This document shows, piece by piece, positions 8,714-37,961 of a stretch of 64,000 nucleotides of DNA; the stretch's first letter is position 1; every line of letters begins with the position of its first letter. Position numbers and translations under genes: made by a program. This stretch comes from an uncultured Acidobacteriaceae bacterium. Lineage in GTDB: Bacteria; Acidobacteriota; Terriglobia; Terriglobales; Acidobacteriaceae. Location of the stretch: NCBI GenBank assembly GCA_963763145.1, contig CAVXMZ010000010.1:22141-86140 (forward strand), in the 5' to 3' direction. The notes under the pieces were generated by a model. That model was given only the letters and a program-made list of their open reading frames with translations, searched no databases and had not been told where the DNA came from.

Positions 8714-9477
8714 GGCTCTAACCTCCGCTGGACCGCGGCAAAACTCTCCGCAGTCCAGGCCCGCGGATGAAAGACGTACACATGCCGGCGCAACAGCGGC
8801 GGCGCAGGCCACGGCTCGTCAGTGGAGACGCCCACACTGCCCCGGCAGAGCGGCTCGCGAAAGTCCTCGCCCAGGGCCAGCGATTGCATAATGTCCGCGC
8901 GGTCCGCCCCCATGCGGAACAGCATGGGCACGGCCTCGGCAATAGGCAGGCCACTCATCCAGTCATCGCCCATGCACCACGAGCCCAGCGCAGTAATGGA
9001 GAGCGGTATCGAAGCAGGCAACCGCCGCCGCACATCGCTGATCAGGGCGCGATAAAAGTCGTGCTGCGAACGCGTGGCGTCAAGGTCGATCTGTAGCGCA
9101 GAAGCCTGGGGGGCGGTGGACAGTCGCACGATTTGCTCGGCCAGCCGGGCGCGATATTCGTCCGCGAAAACCGCAGGCGTACTCTTCGTAGGTTCCAGCC
9201 GGACAACGGCTGTGACCGGCGTATGTTCGCCCACGCGGAGCGGTTGCAGCCGCGGGCGCACCACCGGTGATTGCTCCAGGTACACCGAGCCGGCCAGATA
9301 GGCCACTCCCACATTGTCAGAGTGAAGGAAGCGCAGGTCTTCCGGACGCTCCCACGCCCAGAGCGTCAGCTGCGGCGTCGTTCGTGCCCCGCCAGGCCGC
9401 CAAAGCGCACCAACTCCACTGATCACCAGTAGCGCGAGTAGTGCAGCCCACCGTGCAGGCTTGTGCAAAAGCGACAT
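8710..9477 (-). CDS. Membrane-anchored or secreted protein of unknown function (about 255 aa)
   Basis: The ORF has an N-terminal hydrophobic segment (MSLLHKPARWAALLALLVISGVGALW). The upstream in-frame ATG at 9510 lies inside the candidate promoter, so the start at 9477 is preferred. A 4-nt ATGA overlap couples it to the downstream gene. Confidence 0.6.
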   Translation of the reverse strand: MSLLHKPARWAALLALLVISGVGALWRPGGARTTPQLTLWAWERPEDLRFLHSDNVGVAYLAGSVYLEQSPVVRPRLQPLRVGEHTPVTAVVRLEPTKSTPAVFADEYRARLAEQIVRLSTAPQASALQIDLDATRSQHDFYRALISDVRRRLPASIPLSITALGSWCMGDDWMSGLPIAEAVPMLFRMGADRADIMQSLALGEDFREPLCRGSVGVSTDEPWPAPPLLRRHVYVFHPRAWTAESFAAVQRRLEP

Positions 9478-9715: not shown

Positions 9716-12247
9716 CTACCCGATCATTTTGCGTTGATCGCCGATGCGGCGCTCGCGTTCGTTGGCGAACCGCTCCACCCCAGCGAAAATCGAATCGGGA
9801 TCGAGATGCGCTTCTGCGATCACTTCCAATTCGAGTCCGCCGCTTCTCCAGTGATTGTCGAAGTCGGAGGTGAGGGAATACTCGTCCGTCAACGGACCTA
9901 GGTTGCGCAGCGGCCACATGCGTCGCGTGCCCGTCGATACCACCATCAAATCGTAGCGGGCTTCGGGCGGCAGCACGGAATCGCGATAGGCTTGCGGCTG
10001 GCGATCGAACAAATCCTCGCTGATCGCCGCGATCACCTTCACGTTCACTCCCGCAGCCTCGAGTTTCGGCAGAACTTTCACCAGGTTCACCGTGGAACTC
10101 GATCCTTGTGCGATCACGTAACCGTGGCGCGGCTTGTCCGGCGCGAAATCGCGGATCACGTACAGGCCTTTTGCCGCAGCCCGCAGATCGGTGTCGGCGA
10201 AACGACTGCGGTCCGCGACCGCGAAGTCGGGTCGCGCCACTTCCAGCGTAATGATGCCCACGCGCGGATCGCGCGCCGCGATCTCAGCCGCCGCGAAATA
10301 GCCGGGCGCAACGTCGTTGTAATCCCAAAAGCTCAAATTAATCACCTGACCGCGCGGGAACAGCTTCCATACCTGCGGCGCGAAGATGCCGAAGTGGGTG
10401 CGCGCGTCAGCTGCGGTTTCAGGGCCGGAGTGCGCGGTAAGAATGTGCAGCACGCCGACACGGAATTTGCTGTCCTGGTTTTGCTGACTCCAGACCCGCG
10501 CCGGAGTGTACATCAGTGGCGTGAACGCTCCGTAGGTGCCGCTCAAAGCCCAAACGCCGGCGAATTTTTGGGGATCCACGGAAGCACTTTGGCTCACCAG
10601 TCCGATGGCGGTAGAAACATTGCCCGCTTCCTGAATGGGAGCTTTCAAGCGCGTGCCCAGCGGGTTCTCCGTGGGACTGTAGTGCCCCCACAAACTGCCG
10701 TGCTCCACGTTAATGGACTCCGAAAGGTCGGCGGCCACAGTGAAGAACCGTCCGTCGGTGACGTAATTCATCCACTTGATGATTTCGGAAATCGCGCGCC
10801 GCGCTCCGGCGACCTCGCCCGGCTTCTTGAACAGCGCAATGCTGACTTGCTTCTCCGCACCGGAGAGCGCATTGCGAATCGAGATCTTCTGCGGTTCTTC
10901 CGGTAGCGCCGCGACGCGCAGGCGATCGTCGAGGAACGGATCGCTCGTGGCTGAGATGCGCAACTTCACGTCGTCGCGTACGGTGTCGCCGATTTCCACC
11001 AGGCGATCGGCGAGGCGATCGCCCAATCCGTTGCGGTCGAGCAGCGACATCACCACGTCGATGTTCGTCTTGAACTGGATCAAGCGCTCGCGATTGTCGG
11101 TAACCGGACCCTTGCGAATGCCTTCGAACTCCACGCCGTAATGCTTCTCGAACGTCTGTGCCAGCGCGACAAAATACTCCGAGTTCATCTTCAGCGCGTA
11201 GGGATGGCTGGGATAACTCACCAATTGATCGCCATTGTAACCGGGAATTTTTCCGTCGACAGCGGTGGGCCAGTAGCCCTTGATGGTCTTGCCGATCGCG
11301 ACGATGGGACGGCGGTCCTGCGGATCCACTTCGTCCATGGCTTTCAACGCCGCAGTCACCTCACCGTAATGGTTGCCGTTGGACATGGTGAAGACGTTCC
11401 ATCCATACGACGTCCATTGATTCACCAGATCGTAGACCTCGCAGAAGTGCGAGGCGATTACGCCGCCTATCTTGCCGCCGATCAGGCAGTCGTCGATGCC
11501 CGCGTTGTTGTCGGAAACCATCACCCGCAAACGTTTGCCTACTTGCAGCGCAAGCGCCTGCGTCTTCAACTCCTGCGCGTGACCTTCGGTGAGCGCGAAT
11601 TCGCCTTCCAGCGCGATCACTTTCGGCGAGGCTGGCGCGCCCACGATATCCCAGAACGCCGCTTTGCCTGCGGCCGTCGCGATGCCGATGCCCGATGGCC
11701 CGCCGTTCACGTCGTTGGTTAGGTCGGTGCTTTCGGCATGTCCCATGAGCGCCCGAATGCCACGGCCCTTAGCTTGCGCGAATAGCGGATTGTCTTCCAG
11801 CCCCGTTTCGCGCAGCAGCGTCTTCAACGCGCCCGCGCCGCGCCGGAATCCCAGCGCGTCGATCGGCAGCATGGCGACATGCGGGTCGACGTGATAACGC
11901 GGATCGCCGGTCTGCTGATACTTGCGATACAGGGCCTGGCCCATGATCATCCACAGCGCATAGCACGTCGGGACCGAGTGGCCCGCCGCCATCATGAACT
12001 TGTCGGAGTATGGATGTTTCGGCCGGCGGTAATCGTAACGGAGTCCGCCGTTTTCAGGGCCGGCCAAGTGGGCCGCAACATTGTACGGTGTGTAGGCGAG
12101 CGGTCCGCCCAGATGCCCGGTCTGCGCGTAATTTCCCAGCAGTACCAGGGTCATGCAGGTCATGTATCCCACGTCGTCGAGCAGCGGATCGTAGGCCAAA
12201 GGTTGTTGCCGGGAGGGAGAAGGAACTACGTGAATGAGCGAAGTCAT
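9716..12247 (-). CDS. Transketolase-family thiamine-diphosphate enzyme (long, 843 aa, divergent)
   Basis: TGHLGGPLAYTP resembles the transketolase GH(P/L)GG motif. ALEGEFALTEGHAQE...VSDNNAGIDD aligns by eye to the ThDP/Mg motif GDGxxxEG...DDNxxxID. The C-terminal half looks like the Pyr and C-terminal domains. The specific function is unknown. Confidence 0.55.
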   Translation of the reverse strand: MTSLIHVVPSPSRQQPLAYDPLLDDVGYMTCMTLVLLGNYAQTGHLGGPLAYTPYNVAAHLAGPENGGLRYDYRRPKHPYSDKFMMAAGHSVPTCYALWMIMGQALYRKYQQTGDPRYHVDPHVAMLPIDALGFRRGAGALKTLLRETGLEDNPLFAQAKGRGIRALMGHAESTDLTNDVNGGPSGIGIATAAGKAAFWDIVGAPASPKVIALEGEFALTEGHAQELKTQALALQVGKRLRVMVSDNNAGIDDCLIGGKIGGVIASHFCEVYDLVNQWTSYGWNVFTMSNGNHYGEVTAALKAMDEVDPQDRRPIVAIGKTIKGYWPTAVDGKIPGYNGDQLVSYPSHPYALKMNSEYFVALAQTFEKHYGVEFEGIRKGPVTDNRERLIQFKTNIDVVMSLLDRNGLGDRLADRLVEIGDTVRDDVKLRISATSDPFLDDRLRVAALPEEPQKISIRNALSGAEKQVSIALFKKPGEVAGARRAISEIIKWMNYVTDGRFFTVAADLSESINVEHGSLWGHYSPTENPLGTRLKAPIQEAGNVSTAIGLVSQSASVDPQKFAGVWALSGTYGAFTPLMYTPARVWSQQNQDSKFRVGVLHILTAHSGPETAADARTHFGIFAPQVWKLFPRGQVINLSFWDYNDVAPGYFAAAEIAARDPRVGIITLEVARPDFAVADRSRFADTDLRAAAKGLYVIRDFAPDKPRHGYVIAQGSSSTVNLVKVLPKLEAAGVNVKVIAAISEDLFDRQPQAYRDSVLPPEARYDLMVVSTGTRRMWPLRNLGPLTDEYSLTSDFDNHWRSGGLELEVIAEAHLDPDSIFAGVERFANERERRIGDQRKMIG

Positions 12248-12447: not shown

Positions 12448-13368
12448 CTAAGTTCCAATCACAACACCGCCGTCCACTGAGATCACCGTTCCATGGATGA
12501 AGCTGGCCTGGTCCGAAGCGAGCCAGAAATAAGCGTTGGCCACGTCTTCCGGAGTCCCTGCCCGTCCCATGGGAGTTCGCGCCACCATGGCTTCCAACAC
12601 CTTGGGCGGCATGGCCCTCACCATGTCGGTCGCGATGAATCCCGGCGCCACGGCATTCACCCGGATCTTGTACTTGCCCAATTCCCGCGCCCAAGTGCGC
12701 GTCATGCCGATGACACCGGCCTTGGATGCCACGTAGTTGGTTTGCCCGAAGTTTCCCAGAAGTCCCACAACCGAGGCGGCGGACAAAATTACTCCGCCTC
12801 CGCCCTTGATCATATGGGGCACAATCGCGCGCGTCACCAGGAAGACGCCCTTCATGTTGACCCCGATTACCGAGTCCCAGGTGTCCTCACTCATGATCGA
12901 CTCGGGACAGCCGCCGTTCCACTTCACCAACTGTGCATCACGAACGATGCCGGCATTGTTGATTAGAACGTCGATGCGCCCCCACCTCTCGACCACTGCC
13001 TCGGCGGCGGCTTCCACAGCCTTTGCGTTGGTAACGTCAACCGCTTGAAATTGACATTCCCCTCCGGCCCACTGGACCGCCGACTCCACTTGAGAAGCAG
13101 TCTTGGCGGAAACGTCCCACGCTGCAATCTGCGCGCCGGCTTCGGCAAAGCGAAGCGCGGTAGCACGGCCTATTCCCGCGGCAGCTCCGGTGATGACCAC
13201 TACTTTCCGATGCTGTTCACGCTCTCTGGCCGGCAGGCGCGCATCATGGAACACAGGTACACCGTCGGGGGTCAGTGCAGTTTGTTGATGAAGGGTGGAA
13301 ATTGTTAGGTTTTCACGCGGAAGGGAAACGTCTTCACTAACGGATTCTTCTTTAACGCGAGGCATCAA
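12448..13368 (-). CDS. Short-chain dehydrogenase/reductase, FabG/PhaB-like 3-oxoacyl reductase, with an N-terminal extension of about 55 aa
   Basis: TGAAAGIGRA (Rossmann TGxxxGxG), NNAGI, and S...YxxSK (NYVASKAG). The start is uncertain, because the extension has no recognisable motif. Confidence 0.8.
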   Translation of the reverse strand: MMPRVKEESVSEDVSLPRENLTISTLHQQTALTPDGVPVFHDARLPAREREQHRKVVVITGAAAGIGRATALRFAEAGAQIAAWDVSAKTASQVESAVQWAGGECQFQAVDVTNAKAVEAAAEAVVERWGRIDVLINNAGIVRDAQLVKWNGGCPESIMSEDTWDSVIGVNMKGVFLVTRAIVPHMIKGGGGVILSAASVVGLLGNFGQTNYVASKAGVIGMTRTWARELGKYKIRVNAVAPGFIATDMVRAMPPKVLEAMVARTPMGRAGTPEDVANAYFWLASDQASFIHGTVISVDGGVVIGT

Positions 13369-13482: not shown

Positions 13483-14073
13483 TCAAGACTTGCGGCGAAG
13501 TTTCCCATTTTGGGAAAGCTTTTTCTTCTTCGCTTTCTTGGACGCACGCCTGGTGAGCAACGATTCCAATTCTTCGACTCTCTGCTTCAGTTCGTCCACC
13601 TCGCTGGCGGTCGTCGCAGGCGCTGGGGTTGCGGTCCGCTGCTCTGCCGGCGGCGCTTGCTCTCCGGCGCCTCGATTTCCATCTCCCGTCTGTCCCAGCC
13701 GCCCCTGTAGAAACTCAAACGGATTCACAGCCGGGGGCAGGGAGCGGTAGGCATTCTGATACATCTCCATCATGCCTTTCATGTAGCGCAAGGCATTTTC
13801 CTGGGTCGCGCGGCCTGAGGCCAGGATCATGTGGCGCAGGACATCGAGAGGAAAAATCGAGTCCGGAGTCTTGGCATCTTCCACCACGATCTGGGCCAGC
13901 ACCAGCCGGGTCACGTCCTCGCCGCTGGCGGCGTCTATCACGCGCAGCTCGTGGCCATCGCGCACCAGTTGCGCCACCTGCTCCTGGTTGATGTACTGGC
14001 TGGTTAAGGTGTTGTAAAGACGCCGGTTCTCGTATTTCTTGATGATCAGGGGCTCAGTAGCAGTTTTTTTCAT
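13483..14073 (-). CDS. phaR: Polyhydroxyalkanoate synthesis repressor PhaR
   Basis: The N-terminus LIIKKYENRRLYNTLTSQYINQEQVAQLVRDGHELRVIDAASGEDVTRLVLAQIV is the typical PhaR DNA-binding and PHB-accumulation-regulatory domain signature. The C-terminus has a Lys/Arg-rich tail. Confidence 0.9.
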   Translation of the reverse strand: MKKTATEPLIIKKYENRRLYNTLTSQYINQEQVAQLVRDGHELRVIDAASGEDVTRLVLAQIVVEDAKTPDSIFPLDVLRHMILASGRATQENALRYMKGMMEMYQNAYRSLPPAVNPFEFLQGRLGQTGDGNRGAGEQAPPAEQRTATPAPATTASEVDELKQRVEELESLLTRRASKKAKKKKLSQNGKLRRKS

Positions 14074-14080
14074 TTTGCTC

Positions 14081-14108
14081 TTGACACGCTGCCAGAAGGA
14101 GGTATGAT
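14081..14108 (+). promoter_or_regulatory. Candidate promoter of the phasin gene (TTGACA-16 nt-TATGAT)
   Basis: TTGACA at 14081-14086, a 16-nt spacer, and TATGAT at 14103-14108. It lies in the phaR/phasin divergent intergenic region, immediately upstream of the inverted repeat at 14115-14143. Confidence 0.45.
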
Positions 14109-14175: not shown

Positions 14176-14781
14176 ATGCCAAATACCTCTAAGTCAAGCA
14201 AACACAGCACAACCGCAACCGCCGCCACCACCACCACTGAGATCGTGGACGTTTTTTCGCCTGTCATCATCAACAGCGTGGAGCAGGTTGCCAAGCTGCA
14301 AAAGCAGACCCTGGACCTGGCCGCCGAACAGAGCGCCGAGTGGCTCGGGGCCTGGAAGCAGGCCTTCAGCTTTTTCCCGGTGACCCCTCCGGCCTACATC
14401 TTCGACGCAGCCAGCCAGGCCGTGCAGACCGCCATTGAAAACCAGAAGAACGCCATCGACTTGATCGTGGAACAGACCAAGTCGGCGGCCGAGATCACCA
14501 CGGTGCGCGCCGAAGCTTACGGCAAGATCGCCAGCGGCGTCACCGCGACCATCCAGAAGTCGGTGCAGCGCACGGTGGAAGCCCAGAACAAGGTCCTGGA
14601 GTTCGCCAGTGAGCAGAACAAGACGGTTTTTGCCGCCGCCAAGAAGCAGTTGGGCGGAGCCACCGGGCCGGCAGCCGCGGTCGTCGACGCCTTCCAGCGC
14701 GGCACCGATGCGGTGATCGAAGCGCAGAAGTCGGTCCTGAACATCGCCTCGCAGCCGTTCCTGGCCAACAGCAAGAACTAA
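14176..14781 (+). CDS. Phasin-like PHA granule-associated protein
   Basis: 201-aa ORF that is Ala/Gln/Lys/Glu-rich and looks helical by composition (LQKQTLDLAAEQSAEW..., AIENQKNAIDLIVEQTK..., VEAQNKVLEFASEQNK...). AAGGAG sits 6 nt before the ATG. The gene lies between phaR and phaEC. Confidence 0.6.
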   Translation: MPNTSKSSKHSTTATAATTTTEIVDVFSPVIINSVEQVAKLQKQTLDLAAEQSAEWLGAWKQAFSFFPVTPPAYIFDAASQAVQTAIENQKNAIDLIVEQTKSAAEITTVRAEAYGKIASGVTATIQKSVQRTVEAQNKVLEFASEQNKTVFAAAKKQLGGATGPAAAVVDAFQRGTDAVIEAQKSVLNIASQPFLANSKN

Positions 14782-14894: not shown

Positions 14895-15341
14895 ATGGGT
14901 GAAGATCCAACTCAGGATGGCAAGCGTTTCGACCCGCTGGACGCTTGGCGAGGCGTGCGCGACGTCTATATGGATGCCTGGTCCAAGAACATGGTCGAAA
15001 TGGTAAACACCGAAGCCTATGCGCAAGCGACAGGAGCGATGCTCGACACGTATCTGACAGCCTCAACTCCATTCCGCGAAGCGCTGGAAAAGGCGATGGT
15101 GAAGACGCTTGAGCAATTGGCGATGCCCTCACGGGCCGATGTTGTTTCGATTGCCGAGCGCATGACCAACATCGAGATGCGCCTGGACGACCTCGATGCT
15201 AAGCTGGACAGTATTCACCGTTTGATCACGCAAGCTGTTGGGCCGCCTCCGCCGCCGCGAAAAGCCCAGCAAGCAGCTAAGGCGCAGCAACCAGCCAAGA
15301 AAACCGTCACAGCGAAGAAAGCTAAGAGAGGAAGAAAGTAG
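14895..15341 (+). CDS. phaE: Small PhaE-type subunit of class III/IV PHA synthase with a histone-H1-like basic tail
   Basis: 148 aa. The LAMPSRADVVSIAERMTNIEMRLDDLDAKLD block resembles the conserved PhaE C-terminal box. Its stop lies 1 nt before the phaC ATG, and AAGGAG precedes the start. The tail is PPPPPRKAQQAAKAQQPAKKTVTAKKAKRGRK. Confidence 0.65.
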   Translation: MGEDPTQDGKRFDPLDAWRGVRDVYMDAWSKNMVEMVNTEAYAQATGAMLDTYLTASTPFREALEKAMVKTLEQLAMPSRADVVSIAERMTNIEMRLDDLDAKLDSIHRLITQAVGPPPPPRKAQQAAKAQQPAKKTVTAKKAKRGRK

Positions 15342-15342
15342 G

Positions 15343-16413
15343 ATGGCAGAAGCCACGGTTATCACCGACCCGTATACCGAGACCGCAGAGCGGCTGAAAA
15401 CTCTCACCAAGGTGATGACTACCAAGGCTGCCATCGCCCAGACGCCGAAAGAATTGGTCTGGACGCTCAACAAGGCCAAGCTCTACCGTTACACCCCGGT
15501 TCTGCCCAAAGAAAAGCGCCATCCGATTCCCCTGGTGCTGGTCTTTGCCCTGATGAACCGGCCTTATATTCTCGACCTGCGTCCCGGTCACAGTTTCGTC
15601 GAGTACATGGTCAATAAGGGATACGATCTCTACCTGCTCGACTGGGGAGCGCCGGGCCTGGAAGACAAGAACCTCAAGTTTGACGACTACACTTTGGATT
15701 ACATGCCCCGCGCCATCCGTAAATTGAAAGCGACCTTCGGCGTGAACCAGTTCAGTCTCCTCGGTTGGTGCATCGGAGCCATACTTACCACAATCTATGC
15801 CGCCCTGCGGGGTGACGAAGACGGTCTGCGTAACTTGATCCTGCTGACTGCGCCTCTGGACTTTTCTAACAGGCAGGGACTGACGTTCGCCCGCTGGACC
15901 GACGAGCGTTACTTCGATATCGACAAGGTGCTGGCCGCCTTCGGCAATATGCCGGGCGAAATGATCGACTACGGGGCAAAGGCGCTCAAGCCCGTGGAGA
16001 ACTACATTGGGAATTACGTGAAGCTATGGGACAACATCGACGATCCGCGCATCGTCGAGTCCTGGCATGCGATGAACACCTGGGTCACCGACAACGTGCC
16101 TTTGGCGGGAGGCGCGTTCCGCCAATTGATAGTCGATCTCTATCGCAACGACAAGCTGATGCGCGGCGAACTCATGATTCGCGGCGAGCGAGTCGACCTC
16201 AGCCGGATCCATGCCAATCTATTGACGGTGATTGCTGAGGACGACCACATTACCCCGTCCTGCCAGTCTGAGCCCATCATGTCGAAGGTGAGCAGCGCAG
16301 ACAAGGAACTGTTTCGGGTCAGGGGTGGTCACATCGGAATCATGGCGGGCAGCGGAGCCAGCAAGTTCACCTGGCCGCACATTGATGGCTGGCTCGCCAC
16401 ACGCTCCAAGTAA
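15343..16413 (+). CDS. phaC: Class III-type poly(3-hydroxyalkanoate) synthase catalytic subunit PhaC (about 356 aa)
   Basis: The size, the alpha/beta-hydrolase pattern and the lipase-like box G-W-C-I-G (GxCxG with the catalytic Cys) all fit. ATG at 15343 (MAEATVITDPYTE...) directly follows the phaE stop. The longer track ORF starting at 15238 overlaps phaE and is rejected. Confidence 0.85.
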   Translation: MAEATVITDPYTETAERLKTLTKVMTTKAAIAQTPKELVWTLNKAKLYRYTPVLPKEKRHPIPLVLVFALMNRPYILDLRPGHSFVEYMVNKGYDLYLLDWGAPGLEDKNLKFDDYTLDYMPRAIRKLKATFGVNQFSLLGWCIGAILTTIYAALRGDEDGLRNLILLTAPLDFSNRQGLTFARWTDERYFDIDKVLAAFGNMPGEMIDYGAKALKPVENYIGNYVKLWDNIDDPRIVESWHAMNTWVTDNVPLAGGAFRQLIVDLYRNDKLMRGELMIRGERVDLSRIHANLLTVIAEDDHITPSCQSEPIMSKVSSADKELFRVRGGHIGIMAGSGASKFTWPHIDGWLATRSK

Positions 16414-16425
16414 GCTCGTCACTCC

Positions 16426-19110
16426 TTACATGTGGTATCCACCGTTCACGTTCAACTCCTGACCGGTGATGTAATCCCCATCGGCGGCAAGGAAAGCAGC
16501 CGCTTTGGCGATTTCCTCCACGGTTGCGAAACGCCCCAAGGGAATCTTTGCCTTGATCTGGGCCGCAATCTCTTCCGGAATGGCATCCACCATTTCGGTG
16601 GAAGTGAATCCCGGCGCAATCGCATTCGCGGTGATGTTGAACTTGGCCATCTCCAGGGCGAGCGTCTTGGTGAAGGCGATGATGCCGCCCTTGCTGGCCG
16701 AGTAGTTGGCCTGGCCGAATGCCCCCATCTGTCCCACGACGGAGCTGATATTGATGATCCGCCCAAACCTCTGATTGACCATGGCCGGCACCGCTGCGCT
16801 GGTGCAATAAAAGGTGCCGTTCAGGTTGGTGTTAATGACGGCCACCCAGTCGTCATCGGTCATCTTGCGCATGCTGCGGTCGCGCGTAATGCCGGCGTTG
16901 TTCACCAGGATGTCCAGGCGCTGCCATTTATCCAGCACTTCTTTAACGATGCGTGCGGCGACGCCCTTCTCGGCGACATCGCCCTGCACCAGCAGGCACT
17001 CGACGCCGATCTCGCGGACTTCTTCAGCCGCAGTCTCTGCTTGTTTGGCATCGGAGCGGAAGTTCAAAGCGATGTTCGCTCCGCGGCGTGCGAGTTCCAA
17101 AGCGATTGCGCGTCCGATGCCGCGCGAAGAACCGGTGACCAGTGCGACCTTACCTGCGAGCGAGGTCGCATTGTAATTTCCATTTCCGCCTGCAATGTTT
17201 GCCATCTCAAGACTCCTATCTTCAGAACTACAACTCACAACCGCGGGATCCACGCGCATCACCACGTAACCGCCAACCGCACCGGCTCCGAAACAAGGTG
17301 TAAAGATACGCATTGGCCGGTCAATTCGCCCTTCTTGTACTGCGTCATGGACAGCCAGAAGAATGCTGGCGGATGACGTGTTGCCCATCCGCTCGATGTT
17401 GAAGAAAATCCGGTCGCCGGGAATGCCGGCAGCCTCAGCCAGAGTGAGAACCATGTTCTTATTGGCCTGATGCGGAACTACCAGATCGATCGCGTCGATG
17501 AGCGACCCCTCGCCGCCGTCAGGGTTGGGAAGCCGGCCCAACTCACTCATCATCACTTTCAGATAGCGAGTCACCAGCGCTTTCACCTCGGGCCCGTACA
17601 CGGTGATGTTGTTGTCGAACTCAGGATTAGGCCAGATGATCGAATTCACCTCCGACCACGGACCGCTGGCATAGGTTTGGAAGTATTCAATGTCTGACGG
17701 CGCGCCTTCAGGTGCGGGGCCAATCACGACCGAGGCTGCACCGTCACCAAAAATCATTCGCGAGGTGCGTACCGTCCCGATCTTGTCGGAGAACTTTTCG
17801 GCACACACCAATAGCACGGGCCGGTCAATCTCCTGTAACAGGCGCACGGCTTCGCCAATGCCGTAAGCCATGCCGGCGCAGGCGGCAACTATGTCGCACG
17901 AATTATGGGTCTGCAACAATCCCAGCTCGCCCGACAGCCAGGTGGCCACCGATGGAATCAATCTGGTGCTGGTGCAACTGCAAAACAGCACGGCGCCGAT
18001 CTCCGCGGGACGCCGCCCGGATTTGGCCAAGGCGCTCTTGGCGGCCAGCAGGGCCATTTCCTCCAGTGGCAATTCGGTATAGCAGCGTTGCTCGATGCCG
18101 GTCTTTTCGCCGATCTCCGCCTCCGTCATGCGCGACCAGCAGTAAGCATGGTTGCGGATGAGGTCCGCATTGGTACAGGGGACCTCGCCTTCGTACACCG
18201 CGATGGCCTCGATGCGGGGCAGGATGGCGAAGCGCTTGCTTACCTCGACCGCGGGATAAGGGGTGATCGGCTCGCTCAAAGCGAGCGTGTCGGGCGCTTT
18301 GCGCTCCTGGCGAACTCGCGGACCCCAGTCAGTGTCTTGCCTGACGCGCTGGATGAACCGCAGCACTTCCTGGTTACGCGGATAGAAGGCAACTACATAA
18401 TCATCGTCCTTCAAACTACTGATTTCGCTTTGCGCGCTGGTCGCCGGGTCCCACGGATATTGGTTGTGAAGGATCATGCACTGCCGCATCAAGGCCTCAA
18501 GTTCCGACACCGGATGCAGGCAGTCCAGCACATCGTTATAGGTGTAGCGCAAGTAATCGGGATCGTAGGAGGTCAGCACACGAGTGCGGTTCCTGGGATC
18601 GGCAAGCGCCTCCTCTACCGTCGGTCGCAGAGGCCGGAGCTCTCCACCAGAGCTGAGTTTATTGCGAAAAACATCGAGCAGAATACCGAAAGCGCGGTCC
18701 TCCAGATCTTCGTCCCAAGCTGAAGGCAGGTCCCAGTAGCCGGCTTGGATAGCAGTCGTGATTGCCGAGTCATCGCGCGGCTTGTACACCGGAAGGAAGA
18801 CATCGTGCTTATGACGAGGCAAGTCACCCCAGCGGGTGGGGCGTTTCTCGTACATCGTCAGCGTGTAGCGATTTACCCAAAGCCGGTTCAGCACCAGATC
18901 GCGGCAAAGCTCATACCGGTTCTTGTACTCGCCGGCTTGCAGGCGGCCCGCAATCTCCACATCGGTGAAGGCTTTCTCGCCAAAGTCACGCCGGATGACG
19001 GCGGCAAACTGCTTTAGCGTCTTGAAAACAGAAAAGTCCAACTCGGGGAAAAAATTGCCCGGGAAGACAATGCGTCCGTGAGAATTGATAACGAAAGGTT
19101 TCAGCGACAT
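16426..19110 (-). CDS. Three-part fusion protein: unknown N-terminal domain (about aa 1-295), KASIII/FabH-like condensing enzyme (about aa 296-625), and FabG-like SDR ketoreductase (about aa 651-894)
   Basis: A single uninterrupted 894-aa ORF. KASIII triad context: VAACAGMAYG (Cys411), VVPHQANKN (His547), MGNTSSAS (Asn577). SDR: VTGSSRGIGRA, NNAGI, NYSASKGG. I recognised no motif in the N-terminal domain. Confidence 0.8.
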   Translation of the reverse strand: MSLKPFVINSHGRIVFPGNFFPELDFSVFKTLKQFAAVIRRDFGEKAFTDVEIAGRLQAGEYKNRYELCRDLVLNRLWVNRYTLTMYEKRPTRWGDLPRHKHDVFLPVYKPRDDSAITTAIQAGYWDLPSAWDEDLEDRAFGILLDVFRNKLSSGGELRPLRPTVEEALADPRNRTRVLTSYDPDYLRYTYNDVLDCLHPVSELEALMRQCMILHNQYPWDPATSAQSEISSLKDDDYVVAFYPRNQEVLRFIQRVRQDTDWGPRVRQERKAPDTLALSEPITPYPAVEVSKRFAILPRIEAIAVYEGEVPCTNADLIRNHAYCWSRMTEAEIGEKTGIEQRCYTELPLEEMALLAAKSALAKSGRRPAEIGAVLFCSCTSTRLIPSVATWLSGELGLLQTHNSCDIVAACAGMAYGIGEAVRLLQEIDRPVLLVCAEKFSDKIGTVRTSRMIFGDGAASVVIGPAPEGAPSDIEYFQTYASGPWSEVNSIIWPNPEFDNNITVYGPEVKALVTRYLKVMMSELGRLPNPDGGEGSLIDAIDLVVPHQANKNMVLTLAEAAGIPGDRIFFNIERMGNTSSASILLAVHDAVQEGRIDRPMRIFTPCFGAGAVGGYVVMRVDPAVVSCSSEDRSLEMANIAGGNGNYNATSLAGKVALVTGSSRGIGRAIALELARRGANIALNFRSDAKQAETAAEEVREIGVECLLVQGDVAEKGVAARIVKEVLDKWQRLDILVNNAGITRDRSMRKMTDDDWVAVINTNLNGTFYCTSAAVPAMVNQRFGRIINISSVVGQMGAFGQANYSASKGGIIAFTKTLALEMAKFNITANAIAPGFTSTEMVDAIPEEIAAQIKAKIPLGRFATVEEIAKAAAFLAADGDYITGQELNVNGGYHM

Positions 19111-19373
19111 GGACTATATCTTCATTTCTATGGAAGTTTTGACCGCAGCAGGCCAATCGCTGCGCTCAACCAACATCAAAAAAAGGGTGGAACAAACGCC
19201 AGTTATTACGCCACTCGAATGAAAGACCTGAACGCTCACTGAAGTCAGAATCTATGGGAAAGCTTAAGTTGTGCTACGAACACGAGCTTGTGACCGACGC
19301 CGTTTTCCGATGTGACTTGAATCACCGACAAACCCCACATTCTCAATTAGATCACAACCGGGTTACAGCCAGG

Positions 19374-19766
19374 TCAATCGAATTCCACCAGGACCTGGTT
19401 GGCCTTCACCGAGTCCCCCGGCGCGACATTTACCGATTTCAACTTTCCCGCCACCGGGGCCGTGACCGCGGTCTCCATCTTCATCGCTTCCAGCATGACC
19501 ATGAGATCGTTGACCTGCAACTGCTGACCGGCAACCACCGGCACTCGCACCACGATTCCAGCCAACGGACTACGGCACAACTTGGCTTCGTTGGTGTCCT
19601 GATTCAGAGACGAACCCGGTTTAGGGGGCGTTCGCAATACGGTCGATTGAATCGTGGCCGCCGCCGGCGCCGGAAGGTTGTCCTGGTTCTGCGGAGAATA
19701 ATCCTCCTCAGCTATTTCTACTTCCACTTCGTAGGTCTTCGCGTCAATCGAGATTTGCAGTTTCAT
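19374..19766 (-). CDS. Biotin carboxyl carrier protein, transcarboxylase 1.3S-like (about 131 aa)
   Basis: Biotinylation motif LEAMKMET. The N-terminus MKLQISIDAKTYEVEVEI resembles the 1.3S-type N-terminal assembly segment (MKLKVTVNG..Y.V.V.V, recalled from memory). A Pro/Ala linker is present. The start at 19766 is preferred over the track start at 19889. Confidence 0.8.
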   Translation of the reverse strand: MKLQISIDAKTYEVEVEIAEEDYSPQNQDNLPAPAAATIQSTVLRTPPKPGSSLNQDTNEAKLCRSPLAGIVVRVPVVAGQQLQVNDLMVMLEAMKMETAVTAPVAGKLKSVNVAPGDSVKANQVLVEFD

Positions 19767-19812
19767 GGACTGTTCCAGTCGTAAGCTTGCTTCGCTTCGT
19801 GACTCGGGTTGT

Positions 19813-20016
19813 TCAGCGTCGGGTGGGGCCAAGATTGTGCGAACCCTGCACCATTGTCCGCCCCTGGCGCACCCAGCGGCTGACCGCATCCGAATCCGGC
19901 AACGCCTTCACCGAACGAATGCGGACCTTCTTGCCGAGATATTCCGTGACAGCGGCGGCGATAATCGATACCGTCCGGGGCGTAACCTCAACAGACGAGT
20001 TTGACTTCGAATCCAT
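19813..20016 (-). CDS. Small OadG-like accessory peptide (67 aa)
   Basis: VSIIAAAVTEYLGKKVRIRSVK...W.RQGR resembles the conserved C-terminal motif of gamma/delta-type small subunits of biotin-dependent decarboxylases (recalled pattern). It has no clear TM helix. GGGAG precedes the ATG. It lies between the 12S and biotin-carrier genes. Confidence 0.4.
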   Translation of the reverse strand: MDSKSNSSVEVTPRTVSIIAAAVTEYLGKKVRIRSVKALPDSDAVSRWVRQGRTMVQGSHNLGPTRR

Positions 20017-20033
20017 GTTTGCTCCCAGCTCCG

Positions 20034-21608
20034 TTACAGGGGAATCAGCCCGTGTTTCTTGGCTGGCCGAAGCTCCCGCTTGGTGTGCAGCGCCTCTAAC
20101 GCCCGGGCCAGATATCGCCTGGTCTGGGAGGGCTCGATAACGTCATCCACCAGGCGCCGGCCGGCGGACACATACGGGTTGGCAAAAGTCTTGCGATAGA
20201 GTTCGATCAACTCATCCCGCTTTTGCACCTTGTCATCGGCGGCGTCAATCTCATGGCGAAACACGATTTCCGCGGCGCCTTCGGCGCCCATGACCGCGAT
20301 TTCCGCGGTTGGCCAGGCCACCACGCGGTCGGCTCCCAGGTCTTTGCAGCACATGCCGATGTAAGCTCCACCATACGCTTTGCGCAATACAACCGTTATC
20401 TTTGGCACGGTTGCCGCTGAGTAGGCGAACAGGATCTTCGCTCCATGGCGGATAATGCCGCCGTACTCCTGTTCAACCCCAGGCAGAAATCCGGGCACAT
20501 CGACGAAGGTCAGCAAGGGGATATTGAAGGCGTTGCAGAATCGAATGAACCGGGCAATCTTGCTGGAAGCGTCGATATCCAATGCTCCCGCCAGCACGCT
20601 AGGCTGATTGGACACGATTCCCACCGTGCGTCCCTGGATACGCCCGAAGCCGATCACCGCATTCGCCGCGAAGCCGGGCTGGATCTCGAAGAAGTCCTGA
20701 TGGTCAAGCAATGGCTTCAGCACGGTACGGATGTCGTAAGCGATTTTAGATTCCGTTGGGACCAGGTCATTCAGGCTCAGATCGTCCTCCAGGTCCTGGG
20801 TGTAGGGGAGCCGCGGAGGGTCTTCCAGGTTGTTCGAGGGCAGAAAACTCAGCAGACGGCGCCCGAGTGCCAGCGCCCCTTCATCGTCTTCCGCAATCAG
20901 ATGAATGACGCCAGAGCGGTTCATCTGGGCCGCCGGACCGCCCAATGCATCAGCGGTTACGGTCTCGCCAGTTACTTGTTTGATGACTTGCGGACCGGTG
21001 ATGAATATCTGCGCCCGCTTGGTTTGAATGATGAAATCGGTCAGCGCCGGACTATAGGCTGCGCCTCCGGCACACGGTCCGCAAATGATGGAAATTTGCG
21101 GCACAATCCCTGAAAGCATGACATTGTTGTAGAACACACTCGCATAGCCGGCCAGGCTGTCGATGCCTTCCTGCACGCGCGCCCCCCCGGAATCGTTCAC
21201 GAAGATGAACGGACTCCCGGTCTTCAGGGAAAGCTTCATCATCTCGACAATTTTGGCGCAGTGCACTTCGCCGGCCGCTCCGCCGGCTACCGTGAAATCC
21301 TGCGAGGCCAGGTGAACCAGACGGCCGTCAATGGTCGCGCACCCGGTGACGACGCCGTCAGCAGGAATGTCCTTGTCAGCCATGCCAAACAAGGTGGCCC
21401 GATGCTTGGCGAATAGTCCGATCTCCTGGAAGCTTTCGCCGTCGACCAGTTTGTCGATGCGCTCGCGTGCGGTGAGCTTTCCACCCTCGTGTTGCTTCTG
21501 GATACGCTTTGCGCCTCCACCCTCTTCTATCTTCGCGCGCTTCCCGCGAAGCTCAGCGATGCGCTCGGTCATGGTAGCGCTTGCCGGCTTGGGTGTTGCT
21601 GTCGCCAT
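20034..21608 (-). CDS. Acyl-CoA carboxyltransferase (PccB / MmdA / transcarboxylase 12S family)
   Basis: 524 aa. Typical blocks are KLTARERIDKLVDGESFQEIG, VTGCATIDGR, FVNDSGGARVQEG, GPCAGGAAYSPALTDF and AWPTAEIAVMG. AGGAGG precedes the ATG. Confidence 0.93.
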   Translation of the reverse strand: MATATPKPASATMTERIAELRGKRAKIEEGGGAKRIQKQHEGGKLTARERIDKLVDGESFQEIGLFAKHRATLFGMADKDIPADGVVTGCATIDGRLVHLASQDFTVAGGAAGEVHCAKIVEMMKLSLKTGSPFIFVNDSGGARVQEGIDSLAGYASVFYNNVMLSGIVPQISIICGPCAGGAAYSPALTDFIIQTKRAQIFITGPQVIKQVTGETVTADALGGPAAQMNRSGVIHLIAEDDEGALALGRRLLSFLPSNNLEDPPRLPYTQDLEDDLSLNDLVPTESKIAYDIRTVLKPLLDHQDFFEIQPGFAANAVIGFGRIQGRTVGIVSNQPSVLAGALDIDASSKIARFIRFCNAFNIPLLTFVDVPGFLPGVEQEYGGIIRHGAKILFAYSAATVPKITVVLRKAYGGAYIGMCCKDLGADRVVAWPTAEIAVMGAEGAAEIVFRHEIDAADDKVQKRDELIELYRKTFANPYVSAGRRLVDDVIEPSQTRRYLARALEALHTKRELRPAKKHGLIPL

Positions 21609-21658
21609 GTTGGACCTCCTGGGTCGATTCGAAATCGGAGCCTTGATTAAGACCAGGC

Positions 21659-23167
21659 TTACTGCACCGGTCGGACCGTGACGCTGTGTTCCTCACCGCC
21701 AACTTTGACGATGTAGGTTCGGGATTCTGCCGGTGTAGCCTCGCCGCTGACGGCTGTTTCCTGGTGAGATTCGGGGATGCCTCGCGCTTCCCTCGATAAG
21801 GTCGGTGCATCCTTCGACCCTGCGGTTCGCGCCTGGAAGAACCGTGCTGCGACATTCGGAAACATGGCGTAAGTCAGCACATCTTCATCGCTGCCGTTAC
21901 TGCCGGCCGCTGATGCCTCGGTGCGCCGGTTTTCCCAGGATGGCTCCAGCAAGTCAGCCGGACGACAGGTGATCGCGGCCTTGTTCTGGCGGATCGCTGC
22001 CTGGCGCATGACTTCTTCGTCTCTTGCCCCAGGAGTCGCCCCGTAATAGCCGAGCATCAGGTCGGCGAACTCACTGGTGATCGTGTTGTATTTCCCTTGC
22101 AGAACATTGAACATTGCCTGGGTCCCGAGGATTTCACTCGCCGGGATGGCGAGCGCAGGATAACCAGCGTCCCGGCGAACATTTTGGATTTCTTCTGCCA
22201 CCTGAGCGAGCAACTGAGGCGTACCCTGGCCCTTCAGTTGGTATTCCATGTTCAAGACGAGGGCTGCCGGTATGTGATGCTGGAAGGTCTCCGGCTCAAC
22301 CGCGACGTGCTGAGCATAAAATTCGTCGTACCTTGGCCGCACTGTGGCGATATGTTGCTTTACGCGATGCAGGCGTTTGGTGTCGAGGCGTGAGTCGAAT
22401 CCGGTACCCTCCAACATCGCAACCAGACTCTCGGTCGGGTTGTGGCCGTGGCCCAGCGACAGGGCGCTGATTGCCGTATCTACAATGTCGCATCCGGCTT
22501 CGATCGCCTTCATCAGCGAAACCATGGTCACGCCCGTCGTTGAATGAGTATGGACGCTAACCAGGGTGTCGCTTCCACATCTTTGTTTGATTCCCTTAAC
22601 CAGGTCGTAGGCCGCCTGCGGCTTGAGCAGACCATCAACGTCCTGCACGCAAATAGAGTCGCATCCCAACTCTTTAATCTGCTGCGCAATGTTGAGAAAC
22701 GCCGGGACCGTGTGCACTGGACTTGGGCTGTAGCAGATCGCGCCCTGAGCATGTTTGCCGGCTTTTTTCACGGCCTCAACGCTGGCCCGCAAGTTACGCA
22801 CGTCGTTCAATGCGTCGTAAATGCGGAAGACATCAACGCCATTCAGCGCCGCCTTCTCTACAAAGCGGCTGACAATAGAGTCGTCAAAGTTCCGATGCGC
22901 AACCAGGTTCTGCCCACGCAGCAGCATTTGCAGTCTGGTCTTGGGCAGCAGTTTGCGATAGGTCCGTAGCCTCTCCCATGGATCTTCATTCAGGAAGCGG
23001 ATGCTGGAATGAAATGCCGTTCCGCCCCAACACTCCAGCGACCAATAACCCGCGTTGTCCAGGTCTTCAAAGACGGGTGCGACATCATCGAGGGCCATGC
23101 TGGTTTTCAGAAGGCTCTGCTGGGCTTCGCGCAACAGCAATTCGGTGACTTCCACGGTTCGTGCCAT
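21659..23167 (-). CDS. Transcarboxylase 5S / oxaloacetate decarboxylase-alpha-like carboxyltransferase subunit without a biotinyl domain; non-canonical active-site motifs
   Basis: HMGL-like barrel blocks: YWSLECWGG, RFLNEDPWERLR, QMLLRGQNL, VDVFRIYDALND, KKAGKHAQGAICY, HTHSTTG, AISALSLGHGHNPTES. The C-terminus is TYIVKVGGEEHSVTV. ATG at 23167 (preceded by GAAGGA) is preferred over the TTG at 23188. Confidence 0.85.
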   Translation of the reverse strand: MARTVEVTELLLREAQQSLLKTSMALDDVAPVFEDLDNAGYWSLECWGGTAFHSSIRFLNEDPWERLRTYRKLLPKTRLQMLLRGQNLVAHRNFDDSIVSRFVEKAALNGVDVFRIYDALNDVRNLRASVEAVKKAGKHAQGAICYSPSPVHTVPAFLNIAQQIKELGCDSICVQDVDGLLKPQAAYDLVKGIKQRCGSDTLVSVHTHSTTGVTMVSLMKAIEAGCDIVDTAISALSLGHGHNPTESLVAMLEGTGFDSRLDTKRLHRVKQHIATVRPRYDEFYAQHVAVEPETFQHHIPAALVLNMEYQLKGQGTPQLLAQVAEEIQNVRRDAGYPALAIPASEILGTQAMFNVLQGKYNTITSEFADLMLGYYGATPGARDEEVMRQAAIRQNKAAITCRPADLLEPSWENRRTEASAAGSNGSDEDVLTYAMFPNVAARFFQARTAGSKDAPTLSREARGIPESHQETAVSGEATPAESRTYIVKVGGEEHSVTVRPVQ

Positions 23168-23579: not shown

Positions 23580-25127
23580 ATGATATCGACGCTCACTCCG
23601 CTGGAGTTTCTTGCTCGCAACGCCAGCGCCTACCGCGACTGCACGGCCGCCGTCGACGGCGACCGGCGCTTCACGTACTCCGAATTGCAGCATCGCGTAC
23701 ATTCTTTCGGCGCCGCGTTGCAGCAGTCTGGCATTGCGCCCGGAGACCGGGTTGCTGTGTTGGCACGCAACGGAATCCTGCCGCTGGAAGCGCACTTCGC
23801 TGTCCCACTGATCGGCGCAGTGCTGGTCCCGCTCAATATTCGGCTGCAAAGCGGTGAGTTGGCCACGATCCTGAACCACAGCGGCGCCAGAATCCTGCTG
23901 GGCGATGCTGACCTCCTCGCACCTCTGTTGACAGCGCGCGCGGAGACTCCGCAAGTCGAGCGAATCGTCTCCGATTACGAATCTTTTCTCAGCGAGAGCC
24001 GCAGCCCCGTTTTGCCGCACTTGCCGGAGGAAGAGGACGTGATCTCCATTAACTATACGAGTGGCACGACCGGCGTTCCCAAAGGCGTGATGTACACGCA
24101 CCGCGGAGCATTTCTCAACGCCATTGGTGAAGTGGTTGAACACGGGCTGTCGTACCGGTCGGTTTATCTGTGGACGCTGCCCATGTTCCACTGCAATGGC
24201 TGGTGCTTCCCCTGGGCAGTCACGGCCGTCGGAGGGCGCCAGATATGTCTGCCGGAAGTGAACGCGGAATGCGCCGTCAAGCTGATCGAGAGGGAAGGTG
24301 TTACTCATCTCTGCGGTGCGCCCATCGTGGTACGGACGCTAACGGAATACTGCTCGCGCCAGGGGATTCGTTTCCGCTCGGGACTGAAGATGGTGATCGC
24401 GGCTGCGCCTCCACCGCCCGCCGTGATTCGGGCTGCCGAAGAGGTTGGTATCCATTTGACCCACGTCTATGGGCTCACCGAGACCTATGGGCCGCACTCG
24501 GTCTGTGCCTGGCATTCGGACTGGGACGACGCGCCGCTGGAAGAACGTGTGCTGCTGAAGGCGCGGCAGGGTGTTCCGTATTTAGTTTTTGGAACCGATA
24601 TGCGAGTTGTGGATGAAGACATGCGAGATGTTCCTGCTGACGCACGCAGCGTAGGAGAGGTCGTGATGCGCGGTAACAATGTGATGCTGGGCTACTACCG
24701 CGATCCTGAGGCAACTGCAACCGCCTTCCGCGGCGGCTGGTTCCACTCCGGGGACCTGGCCGTGATGCATCCGGATGGCTATATCGAAGTGCGTGACCGC
24801 TCGAAGGACATCATCATCTCTGGAGGAGAGAACATTTCCTCGCTTGAGGTGGAGCGCGTGTTGTATGAGCATCCTGCTGTACTGGAGGCGGCGATTGTCG
24901 CCCAACACGACGAGAAGTGGGGTGAGGTGCCGCACGCCTACGTGTTACTGAGGGAAGACGCCGTGGTCAGCGAACAGGAGTTGATGGCCTTCTGTCGCGA
25001 ACGTTTGGCTCATTTCAAATGCCCGAAAGCGGTACACTTTGGTGCATTGCCCAAGACCTCAACCGGCAAGATCCGCAAGAACGTGCTGCGCCAACAAGCG
25101 CGCGCCGCAGTCGAAGGAGCGTCGTGA
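23580..25127 (+). CDS. AMP-forming acyl-CoA synthetase / fatty-acid-CoA ligase family
   Basis: AMP-binding motif INYTSGTTGVPKGVMYTHRG, plus YGLTET, GWFHSGD and the final PKTSTGKIRK. ATG at 23580 is preceded by AAGGTGG. Confidence 0.88.
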   Translation: MISTLTPLEFLARNASAYRDCTAAVDGDRRFTYSELQHRVHSFGAALQQSGIAPGDRVAVLARNGILPLEAHFAVPLIGAVLVPLNIRLQSGELATILNHSGARILLGDADLLAPLLTARAETPQVERIVSDYESFLSESRSPVLPHLPEEEDVISINYTSGTTGVPKGVMYTHRGAFLNAIGEVVEHGLSYRSVYLWTLPMFHCNGWCFPWAVTAVGGRQICLPEVNAECAVKLIEREGVTHLCGAPIVVRTLTEYCSRQGIRFRSGLKMVIAAAPPPPAVIRAAEEVGIHLTHVYGLTETYGPHSVCAWHSDWDDAPLEERVLLKARQGVPYLVFGTDMRVVDEDMRDVPADARSVGEVVMRGNNVMLGYYRDPEATATAFRGGWFHSGDLAVMHPDGYIEVRDRSKDIIISGGENISSLEVERVLYEHPAVLEAAIVAQHDEKWGEVPHAYVLLREDAVVSEQELMAFCRERLAHFKCPKAVHFGALPKTSTGKIRKNVLRQQARAAVEGAS

Positions 25128-37784: not shown

Positions 37785-37961
37785 GCTGAGTAGTAAGGAT
37801 CTCTTGCGGGCGCCGCCAGGCGTCTGCTCGGGCATCCCGCATCGGGAATCGGACCGTTTCTAGACTGGTCCGCATTGTTTGCTGTCCCATCCTGGCAGAT
37901 GTCACTGCCAGGCGATCGCCATCAGGCATGCAATGGTCGTGAAAGAAGGCTCACGACCCCT

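Follow-up and report, generated by a model that had tools for sequence, protein, structure and literature searches.

A 64,000-nt stretch of DNA from an uncultured Acidobacteriaceae bacterium (contig CAVXMZ010000010.1; hereafter the window, which is all the DNA seen from the source genome) encodes an 894-aa fusion protein that joins a divergent KASIII domain, of the FabH fold, to a FabG/PhaB-type ketoreductase. The gene lies between a set of carboxyl-transfer genes and a cluster for polyhydroxyalkanoate (PHA) synthesis. We propose, at a probability of roughly 0.45, that in Terriglobales and related Acidobacteriota MAGs (metagenome-assembled genomes) these genes form a dedicated, thiolase-independent module for the supply of PHA monomers, which would act by decarboxylative condensation and most likely use malonyl-CoA as extender. 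The links of the fusion gene with the PHA genes, and with the genes of a 12S-type carboxyltransferase and a biotin carboxyl carrier protein (BCCP), are strongly supported by comparative genomics. It is rather probable that the fusion serves PHA monomer supply; that the linked carboxyltransferase provides its extender is put forward tentatively.

The open reading frame (ORF) of the fusion occupies positions 16426..19110 of the minus strand and matches ACP_syn_III, ACP_syn_III_C and adh_short. The initial annotation had described a two-domain fusion of KASIII with a short-chain dehydrogenase/reductase (SDR); both parts are present, but a third, N-terminal domain of about 296 residues had been overlooked. 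Residues 1-296 (18223..19110, minus strand) form this N-terminal domain, residues ~297-622 (17245..18222, minus strand) the KASIII domain, which carries the ACP_syn_III and ACP_syn_III_C matches, and residues ~651-894 plus the stop codon (16426..17160, minus strand) the ketoreductase (KR) domain, with adh_short_C2 at E 1.9e-63. The fusion gene and phaC are convergent, with 12 nt between their stop codons, and a 263-nt intergenic gap (19111..19373, minus strand) separates the fusion gene from that of the biotin carrier. ORF and Pfam scans agree with the gene positions and order given by the initial annotation, including the 12-nt and 263-nt spacings. Domain content is observed directly, as are the family relationships and gene linkage given below and the lack of a thiolase in the cluster.

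In the proposed pathway, the 12S-type subunit, a conserved small subunit and BCCP, as the conserved extender-making set, would carboxylate acetyl-CoA to malonyl-CoA. As primer, the KASIII domain would use a short acyl-CoA (most likely acetyl-CoA) and condense it with a carboxylated two-carbon extender, probably malonyl-CoA, releasing CO2 and giving acetoacetyl-CoA; the unfavourable thiolase step would in this way be replaced by an irreversible decarboxylative one. The 296-residue N-terminal domain would be an integral part of this condensing enzyme. The 3-ketoacyl product would be reduced by the fused FabG/PhaB-type reductase to (R)-3-hydroxyacyl-CoA, i.e., (R)-3-hydroxybutyryl-CoA, and the (R)-3-hydroxyacyl-CoA would be polymerised by a class III/IV-type PhaC with its small partner. 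We infer every substrate of this scheme, as well as the use of CoA rather than acyl carrier protein (ACP), the stereochemistry and the direction of carboxyl transfer. For the clade of the window, a 5S-type subunit would load the carboxyl group onto biotin from oxaloacetate, without ATP. The ATP-free transcarboxylase version for this clade, in which CO2 from oxaloacetate would pass to acetyl-CoA, and malonyl-CoA and acetyl-CoA would yield (R)-3-hydroxybutyryl-CoA without a thiolase or any direct expense of ATP, is a doubtful one. No published native KASIII-based PHA route or fusion of this kind was found, nor any paper joining "Sulfotelmatobacter" and "polyhydroxyalkanoate", yet subscription journals were thinly covered by the searches, which makes this weak evidence.

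Relatives of the N-terminal and KASIII domains were sought in one genome per species (GTDB). The scan returned more than 530 loci, and the best 80 were taken with 10-kb flanks. An exact copy of the fusion protein was not found in public assemblies, and close homologues were used instead. All of the best 80 loci (80/80) come from uncultured organisms, i.e., from metagenome-assembled genomes (MAGs). Their labels are mostly Terriglobales, Acidobacteriaceae, Korobacteraceae, Sulfotelmatobacter or Acidobacteriota, with a further set from Rokubacteria/Methylomirabilota and two fused-gene loci labelled Binatia; the closest relatives among these 80 are Korobacteraceae MAGs from bog and peat, at 95% identity. 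Linkage was counted over the 45 species-level genomes, from Terriglobales and related Acidobacteriota MAGs, that carry the fused gene with at least 8 kb of flank on each side. In these, phaC is found at a distance of up to 10 kb from the fusion gene in 41/45 loci, 12S in 34/45, both in 32/45, and 5S in 15/45. For a random gene, a place within 10 kb of phaC is expected in far fewer than 1% of cases. Thiolase-like genes are present within 10 kb in 2/84 loci and AccC in 1/84 (tblastn with CnPhaA and EcAccC as queries).

The linkage is kept through at least four gene orders. The fusion gene is convergent with phaC in the layout of the window; in other loci (e.g., L003, L025, L031-L037 and L079) it follows phaC directly, on the same strand. 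The 12S, small-subunit and BCCP genes lie directly upstream of the fusion gene, with gaps of 28-40 nt and with the pha genes 3-6 kb downstream, in L040-L058, L066 and L067, and directly downstream of it, with gaps of 75-80 nt, in L025, L034, L035 and L079. In L017 and L028, the entire operon of 5S, 12S, small subunit and BCCP is on the far side of the pha cluster. Given these short gaps between BCCP and fusion (28-40 nt) and between fusion and 12S (75-80 nt), co-transcription is implied. Inherited synteny alone does not explain linkage through so many rearrangements. The neighbourhood that the initial annotation had read from this one window is conserved with the pha genes in relatives, phaC being kept in 41 of the 45 across several gene orders, and the same applies to 12S and BCCP (34 of the 45), which in many species stand 28-80 nt from the fusion gene on the same strand. 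One MAG, SMAG_U12924, has two copies of the 12S-small subunit-BCCP-fusion set on different contigs (L042 and L046); either a recent duplication or strain heterogeneity in the bin may account for this.

The KASIII domain adopts the fold of FabH (TM 0.88 to E. coli FabH, EcFabH) and retains the Cys-His-Asn triad. Its scores are under the curated FabH cut-offs (154.8 against 249 for NF006829, and 125.1 against 292.1 for TIGR00747). It is 29-32% identical to the E. coli, V. cholerae and Aquifex FabHs (99-124 bits) and 24% identical to NphT7 (66.6 bits), whereas the reference FabHs and NphT7 are 33-46% identical among themselves. The reference sequences of NphT7, EcFabH, EcFabG and C. necator PhaB (CnPhaB) were confirmed as exact by database look-up. 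The initial annotation had cited NphT7 as an example of a KASIII-fold enzyme; a kinship with it is not sustained by these values, which place the domain closer to FabH. The position of EcFabH Arg249 is occupied by Arg in the three FabHs, by Val in NphT7, and by Asn, Thr, Ala or Pro across the fusion family. In the window, the changes relative to EcFabH are R249 to N, K256 to E, K257 to A, K214 to A and R36 to K, with R151 kept; the K256, K257 and K214 positions are non-basic in most family members, of which one or two keep Lys at K214 or K257. The basic residues R249, K256/K257 and K214 of FabH are said to have been described by Zhang et al. in 2001 as the ACP-docking site. On sequence comparison, the domain stands as a separate lineage, distinct both from housekeeping FabH and from orthologues of NphT7; curated score, architecture and the loss of Arg249 all set it apart from housekeeping FabH.

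The initial annotation had also observed that fabH is missing from the fab cluster of the window. This was borne out: between plsX (59989-61071) and fabD (62897-63862) there is a 549-aa opposite-strand TPR gene and no fabH, and the cluster is 40 kb from the fusion gene. A canonical FabH C-terminus was found at a contig end of a Sulfotelmatobacter MAG (L039 8322-8510), ~4 kb from the fusion gene, and a canonical fabH that stands by itself, apart from any fab cluster, on a 1-Mb contig (L085 5303-6303) of the same soil assembly set as several fusion-bearing MAGs. The search with the 65-aa canonical FabH fragment returned short gene fragments only, one of which led to L085. Because canonical fabH is located elsewhere in these contigs, its absence from the plsX-fabD cluster appears normal for the lineage.

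The KR domain has a Ser-Tyr-Lys triad (equivalents of S138, Y151 and K155) and the glycine-rich motif TGSSRGIG. It shares 46% of its residues with EcFabG and 39% with CnPhaB. Its scores are nearly the same for the FabG model TIGR01830 (294 against 297.75) and the acetoacetyl-CoA reductase model TIGR01829 (270 against 302), below the cut-off in both cases, and above that of one FabG subfamily (NF009466, 250.6 against 222). Relative to EcFabG, R129 is kept and R172 is lost (Phe or Tyr), a mixed pattern that does not discriminate. One or two additional stand-alone SDR genes, 61-80% identical to the fused KR, are found beside the fusion gene in loci of more remote Acidobacteriota (L060, L061, L062, L063, L069 and L083), and look like duplicated copies of the fused domain. 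In L062 and L063 the fusion gene is accompanied by a tandem SDR, with phaC and 12S absent within 10 kb.

The N-terminal domain (residues 1-296) matches no Pfam or NCBIfam model. Only 373 clusters with it were returned from the 1.84 billion representative proteins searched, and in the inspected full-length members the domain runs into KASIII, in proteins of ~620-680 aa without a reductase or ~880-900 aa with one. The AlphaFold2 model has a pLDDT of 85.8 and a pTM of 0.80, and no PDB structure resembles it (best Foldseek E 1.8, TM <= 0.16). In one divergent 622-aa representative with the N-terminal and KASIII domains (P0129), the catalytic Cys is replaced by Ala and the catalytic Asn by Asp; it is probably a non-condensing or inactive paralogue.

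The carboxyl-transfer genes are all on the minus strand. The 5S-type carboxyltransferase, of the oxaloacetate/pyruvate side, is encoded at 21659..23167 (502 aa from ATG; the ORF reaches a TTG at 23188) and matches HMGL-like and PYC_OADA. It is followed by the 12S-type acyl-CoA carboxyltransferase (20034..21608, 524 aa, Carboxyl_trans E 4e-181), the 67-aa conserved small subunit (19813..20016), recognised by its position and C-terminal motif, and the 1.3S-like biotin carrier (19374..19766, 130 aa, Biotin_lipoyl E 4e-13, with an EAMKME motif), whose ORF extends upstream to 19889 and a homologue of which is also called at 130 aa. The best PDB match of 12S is the P. shermanii transcarboxylase 12S subunit (1on3, E 1.4e-209), and that of 5S is the 5S subunit of the same enzyme (1rqb/1s3h, E 1.5e-174), well ahead of PycB and OadA. 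Among NCBIfam models, 5S scores best with NF008984 ("methylmalonyl-CoA carboxytransferase subunit 5S"), where its 723.5 bits fall short of the cut-off of 827. For the biotin carrier, the top PDB matches include the transcarboxylase 1.3S subunit, but this match does not discriminate. By family relationships, the window clade carries a transcarboxylase-type subunit set with one extra small subunit. The transcarboxylase reading of the initial annotation stands in part: 5S and 12S are nearest to genuine transcarboxylase subunits, but 5S is linked in only 15 of the 45 loci, and the conserved partner of the fusion is the set of 12S, small subunit and BCCP. A clade-specific supply of malonyl-CoA by transcarboxylation would be plausible.

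The 67-aa small subunit has no Pfam or NCBIfam match. It is kept across loci in position and in its C-terminal motif, PETLAxIAxxVTxxLGKKVRIRSV...W.QQGR..Q.SHNL. In relatives without 5S (L040, L046, L048 and L058), it reaches ~150 aa, has a transmembrane helix at the N-terminus as well as a coiled coil, and resembles the anchor subunit of Na+-decarboxylases; the version of the window has lost the transmembrane helix. Where 5S is lacking, the neighbours of 12S include acetyl-CoA synthetase, pyruvate:ferredoxin oxidoreductase, a permease and others, and no biotin carboxylase or pump subunit was found beside 12S when the flanking genes of five such loci were scanned. Among the genes that flank the module in these loci (L046 5226-7133 and 17326-20118; L041 2472-5630), the acetyl-CoA synthetase, a Pat-like ADP-forming acyl-CoA synthetase/acetyltransferase and the pyruvate:ferredoxin oxidoreductase all make or use acetyl-CoA.

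The acyl-CoA specificity of 12S was considered at the position of D422 in S. coelicolor PccB and I420 in AcCCB (ScPccB-D422/ScAcCCB-I420). According to PMC7835884, which cites Diacovich 2004, D422 confines PccB to propionyl-CoA, Ile420 of AcCCB accompanies the use of acetyl-, propionyl- and butyryl-CoA, and the mutations D422I and I420D exchange these substrate behaviours. Alignment to the D422I structure (1xnw) places Ile417 of the window's 12S at this position, and Ile is present in 50/50 orthologues linked to the fusion gene. The same position is Leu in P. shermanii 12S and Ile in the Thermotoga enzyme. Ile417 would permit carboxylation of acetyl-CoA without proving it.

On the other side of the fusion gene, PhaC, the catalytic subunit of a class III/IV-type PHA synthase (15343..16413, plus strand, 356 aa from ATG), matches PhaC_N and Abhydrolase_1, scores 340.8 bits against the cut-off of 365.3 for TIGR01836, and has a GWCIG lipase box. 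The gene of its 148-aa partner subunit (14895..15341, plus strand) ends 1 nt before the phaC start, is translationally coupled to it, and is found directly upstream of phaC in nearly all phaC-bearing loci. The partner reaches 50.9 bits against 148.4 for TIGR02132 (phaR_Bmeg, E 1.7e-13) and E 0.002 for PHA_synth_III_E, both far under the curated cut-offs. Next come a 201-aa phasin-like gene (14176..14781, plus strand), the PHA synthesis repressor PhaR (13483..14073, minus strand; PHB_acc_N E 1.6e-25, TIGR01848 E 2e-28) and a second FabG/PhaB-like SDR (12448..13368, minus strand; adh_short_C2 E 7.8e-67), which is next to PhaR in most loci. The initial annotation had listed phaR, a phasin, phaE and this SDR beyond phaC. 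PhaR and the SDR stand, but "phaE" appears to be a short PhaE/PhaR-like subunit, for which the class IV PhaR model is better than PhaE, and "phasin" rests on position and composition: the gene has no significant Pfam or NCBIfam match, and its place between the PhaR and synthase genes is kept in nearly all loci. By consensus match only, a near-consensus sigma-70-type promoter (TTGACA-16-TATGAT, 11/12) is predicted at 14081-14108 (plus strand), in the intergenic region of the PhaR and phasin-like genes, the expected place for a phasin promoter under PhaR control.

Several points weigh against the proposed module. The Ile of 12S is permissive rather than diagnostic, and the nearest characterised 12S homologues work on propionyl-CoA or methylmalonyl-CoA. 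With 5S linked in a third of the species (15/45), the others have no adjacent biotin-loading enzyme. The KASIII domain is nearer to FabH than to NphT7, the KR domain is nearer to EcFabG than to PhaB and retains the FabG Arg129, and the pha cluster has a separate SDR of its own. Beyond the 64 kb of the window, the genome may encode phaA, accABCD or a further fabH. Finally, the unfused homologues of the N-terminal and KASIII domains in Rokubacteria/Methylomirabilota have variable neighbours and no pha linkage, which suggests that the core enzyme is not intrinsically PHA-specific.

Given the substrates of its nearest homologues, the carboxyltransferase may act on propionyl-CoA/methylmalonyl-CoA while the fusion still serves PHA, with malonyl-CoA coming from the housekeeping acetyl-CoA carboxylase. 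A methylmalonyl-CoA pathway could yield propionyl-CoA primers, and from these 3-hydroxyvalerate units, or methylmalonyl-CoA could itself be the extender, giving 2-methyl-branched units; a variant is that the carboxyltransferase serves plain propionate metabolism. This would fit the relationship of 12S and 5S to methylmalonyl-CoA:pyruvate transcarboxylase, propionyl-CoA carboxylase beta subunits and MmdA, and the membrane-anchored small subunit of relatives without 5S, as in methylmalonyl-CoA decarboxylases. Peatland Acidobacteria MAGs with propionate pathways have been reported (PMC6018796). We consider it unlikely, however, as Ile stands in all 50 linked 12S sequences where propionyl-CoA-specific enzymes typically have Asp, Pfam scans of the window's large ORFs showed neither a methylmalonyl-CoA mutase nor an epimerase, and neither the window nor the scanned flanks of the five loci without 5S yielded a decarboxylase beta subunit. 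The similarity of KASIII to the FabHs (up to 124 bits, against 67 for NphT7) instead points to an ACP-dependent fusion that would convert malonyl-ACP to 3-hydroxyacyl-ACP, later moved to CoA for PhaC, perhaps by the N-terminal domain, which is available for an extra activity. The KR domain, 46% identical to EcFabG with Arg129 kept and one FabG subfamily cut-off passed, agrees with this. Such a fusion would be a natural counterpart of the engineered FabH/FabG monomer supply of E. coli, in which fabH or fabD overexpression raises the PHA content (Taguchi 1999, as cited in PMC11539682). Such dependence is nevertheless quite unlikely, since Arg249 is kept nowhere in the family and most members have non-basic residues at K256/K257, Phe or Tyr stands in place of FabG Arg172, no ACP, PhaG or FabD is encoded among the linked genes, and the tight linkage to 12S and BCCP would be left unexplained.

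The variable, non-pha neighbours of the unfused Rokubacteria/Methylomirabilota homologues, the two loci (L062 and L063) with fusion and tandem SDR that lack phaC and 12S within 10 kb, and an N-terminal domain without known function would all suit an enzyme that makes another beta-keto or beta-hydroxy thioester, such as a lipid, signal or polyketide-like precursor, with the PHA link being regulatory or due to shared precursors. The linked genes, however, include no polyketide or lipid tailoring genes, a class III/IV PhaC needs exactly a product of the KS-KR type, and the linkage is very strongly conserved, all of which makes this explanation improbable. The initial annotation had itself offered the alternative that the fusion is the housekeeping FabH-FabG of the cell; in that case it would be beside the pha genes by chance, and the transcarboxylase would serve central metabolism. 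Although there is no fabH between plsX and fabD and no other FabH-like sequence in the 64 kb, this alternative does not agree with a phaC linkage kept in 41/45 species through several rearrangements, with a KAS domain far under the FabH cut-offs and without Arg249, or with the canonical FabH C-terminus in L039 and the stand-alone canonical fabH at L085; we regard it as highly improbable. Monomer supply by decarboxylative condensation, with malonyl-CoA as the likely extender, is the reading we prefer.

The absences in the window were checked by Pfam scans of 20 further large ORFs and by tblastn, with the verified EcFabH and with CnPhaA and EcAccC as queries. As the initial annotation had claimed, the 64-kb window has no thiolase (Pfam scans; tblastn with CnPhaA), no biotin carboxylase (Pfam scans; tblastn with EcAccC) and no decarboxylase beta (pump) subunit (Pfam scans of large ORFs). 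No FabH-like sequence was found by tblastn with EcFabH outside the KAS domain of the fusion; a weak match at 183-368 belongs to a TPR-like ORF and is not FabH. The 263-nt gap upstream of the fusion gene has no Rfam match and no promoter- or terminator-like site, and its counterpart in many relatives is just 28-40 nt long.

Divergent from 5S, an acyl-CoA synthetase of the PRK08162 type (23580-25127, plus strand; 673 for NF006020, whose cut-off is 677) and an enoyl-CoA hydratase (PRK08139; 25127-25933, plus strand; NF006008, 359 against 313) overlap by 1 base and are translationally coupled. Their synteny is limited to the closest relatives (L001, L002 and L006-L009), and their membership of the module is uncertain. 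An 843-aa protein with weak Transketolase_N/Transketolase_C matches is encoded next to the SDR of the pha cluster (9716-12247, minus strand) and is 92% identical to a gene of L068; this transketolase/E1-like gene was dropped as a module member, given that it has no synteny with pha genes in relatives. Five further ORFs (411-921 aa) have a coding-like composition and no Pfam match at E <= 1e-4: 6299-8812 (minus), 37875-39434 (plus), 44219-45574 (minus), 45761-46996 (plus) and 52889-55654 (plus).

The textbook sources of PHA monomers are the thiolase/PhaB, beta-oxidation/PhaJ and fatty-acid synthesis/PhaG routes. If the proposal is true, a natural, malonyl-CoA-driven decarboxylative route would join them as a fourth source, and it would account for the ability of slow-growing, oligotrophic soil Acidobacteria to store carbon at the low acetyl-CoA levels that make the thiolase equilibrium unfavourable. 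The trait may matter for carbon storage in peat, bog and soil, because relatives were found at more than 530 loci and the sample names of several of the best 80 refer to peat, bog or soil. The N-terminal domain, with a confident model, no match among solved structures and a position preceding KASIII in the inspected full-length members, is a target for structural and functional work.

In comparison with known systems, the PHA genes share with class III (PhaEC) and class IV (PhaRC) loci a PhaC of ~356 aa with a GxCxG box, a coupled small partner, and PhaR and a phasin-like gene nearby, but here the cluster has no phaA thiolase and the partner passes neither the PhaE nor the PhaR threshold. The carboxyl-transfer genes are closest to the P. 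shermanii-type transcarboxylase (12S+5S+1.3S, EC 2.1.3.1), as shown by the best PDB matches of 12S and 5S, and share with it a separate small biotin carrier; like the Propionibacterium enzyme, the operon of the window has no biotin carboxylase. It differs in the score of 5S, which is under the NCBIfam cut-off, in a fourth, small subunit encoded between 12S and the carrier, in the lack of 5S from the neighbourhood of most relatives, and in a PHA context instead of propionate fermentation. The order of carboxyltransferase, small subunit and biotin carrier is also that of the Na+-translocating MmdADCB and OadABG systems, yet their pump beta subunit was not found in the window or in the scanned flanks of the five loci without 5S, and the small subunit of the window has no transmembrane helix.

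With FabH and recombinant FabH/FabG supply, the fusion shares the fold, the triad and the pairing of a ketosynthase with a KR for 3-hydroxyacyl units. FabH, however, is a single-domain protein of ~320 aa encoded with the fab genes, whereas the fusion has 894 aa in three domains, is encoded beside phaC and outside the fab cluster, scores below the FabH cut-offs and has lost the basic residues. The closest parallel in proposed logic is the engineered NphT7-PhaB-PhaC route, which works and is termed "non-canonical" by its authors (PMC11539682): a KASIII-fold enzyme carries out a decarboxylative condensation of acetyl-CoA with malonyl-CoA, followed by an SDR and then PhaC. NphT7 also keeps the Cys-His-Asn triad and lacks the FabH Arg249, as does the fusion family, although the fusion differs by its fused reductase, its extra 296-aa domain and an identity of only 24%. 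If our proposal is true, the fusion would be a natural, pre-fused counterpart of the NphT7-PhaB module built by engineers, maybe with an ATP-free supply of malonyl-CoA. The engineered route is synthetic and NphT7 natively feeds the mevalonate pathway, whereas the fusion is natively linked to the pha genes.

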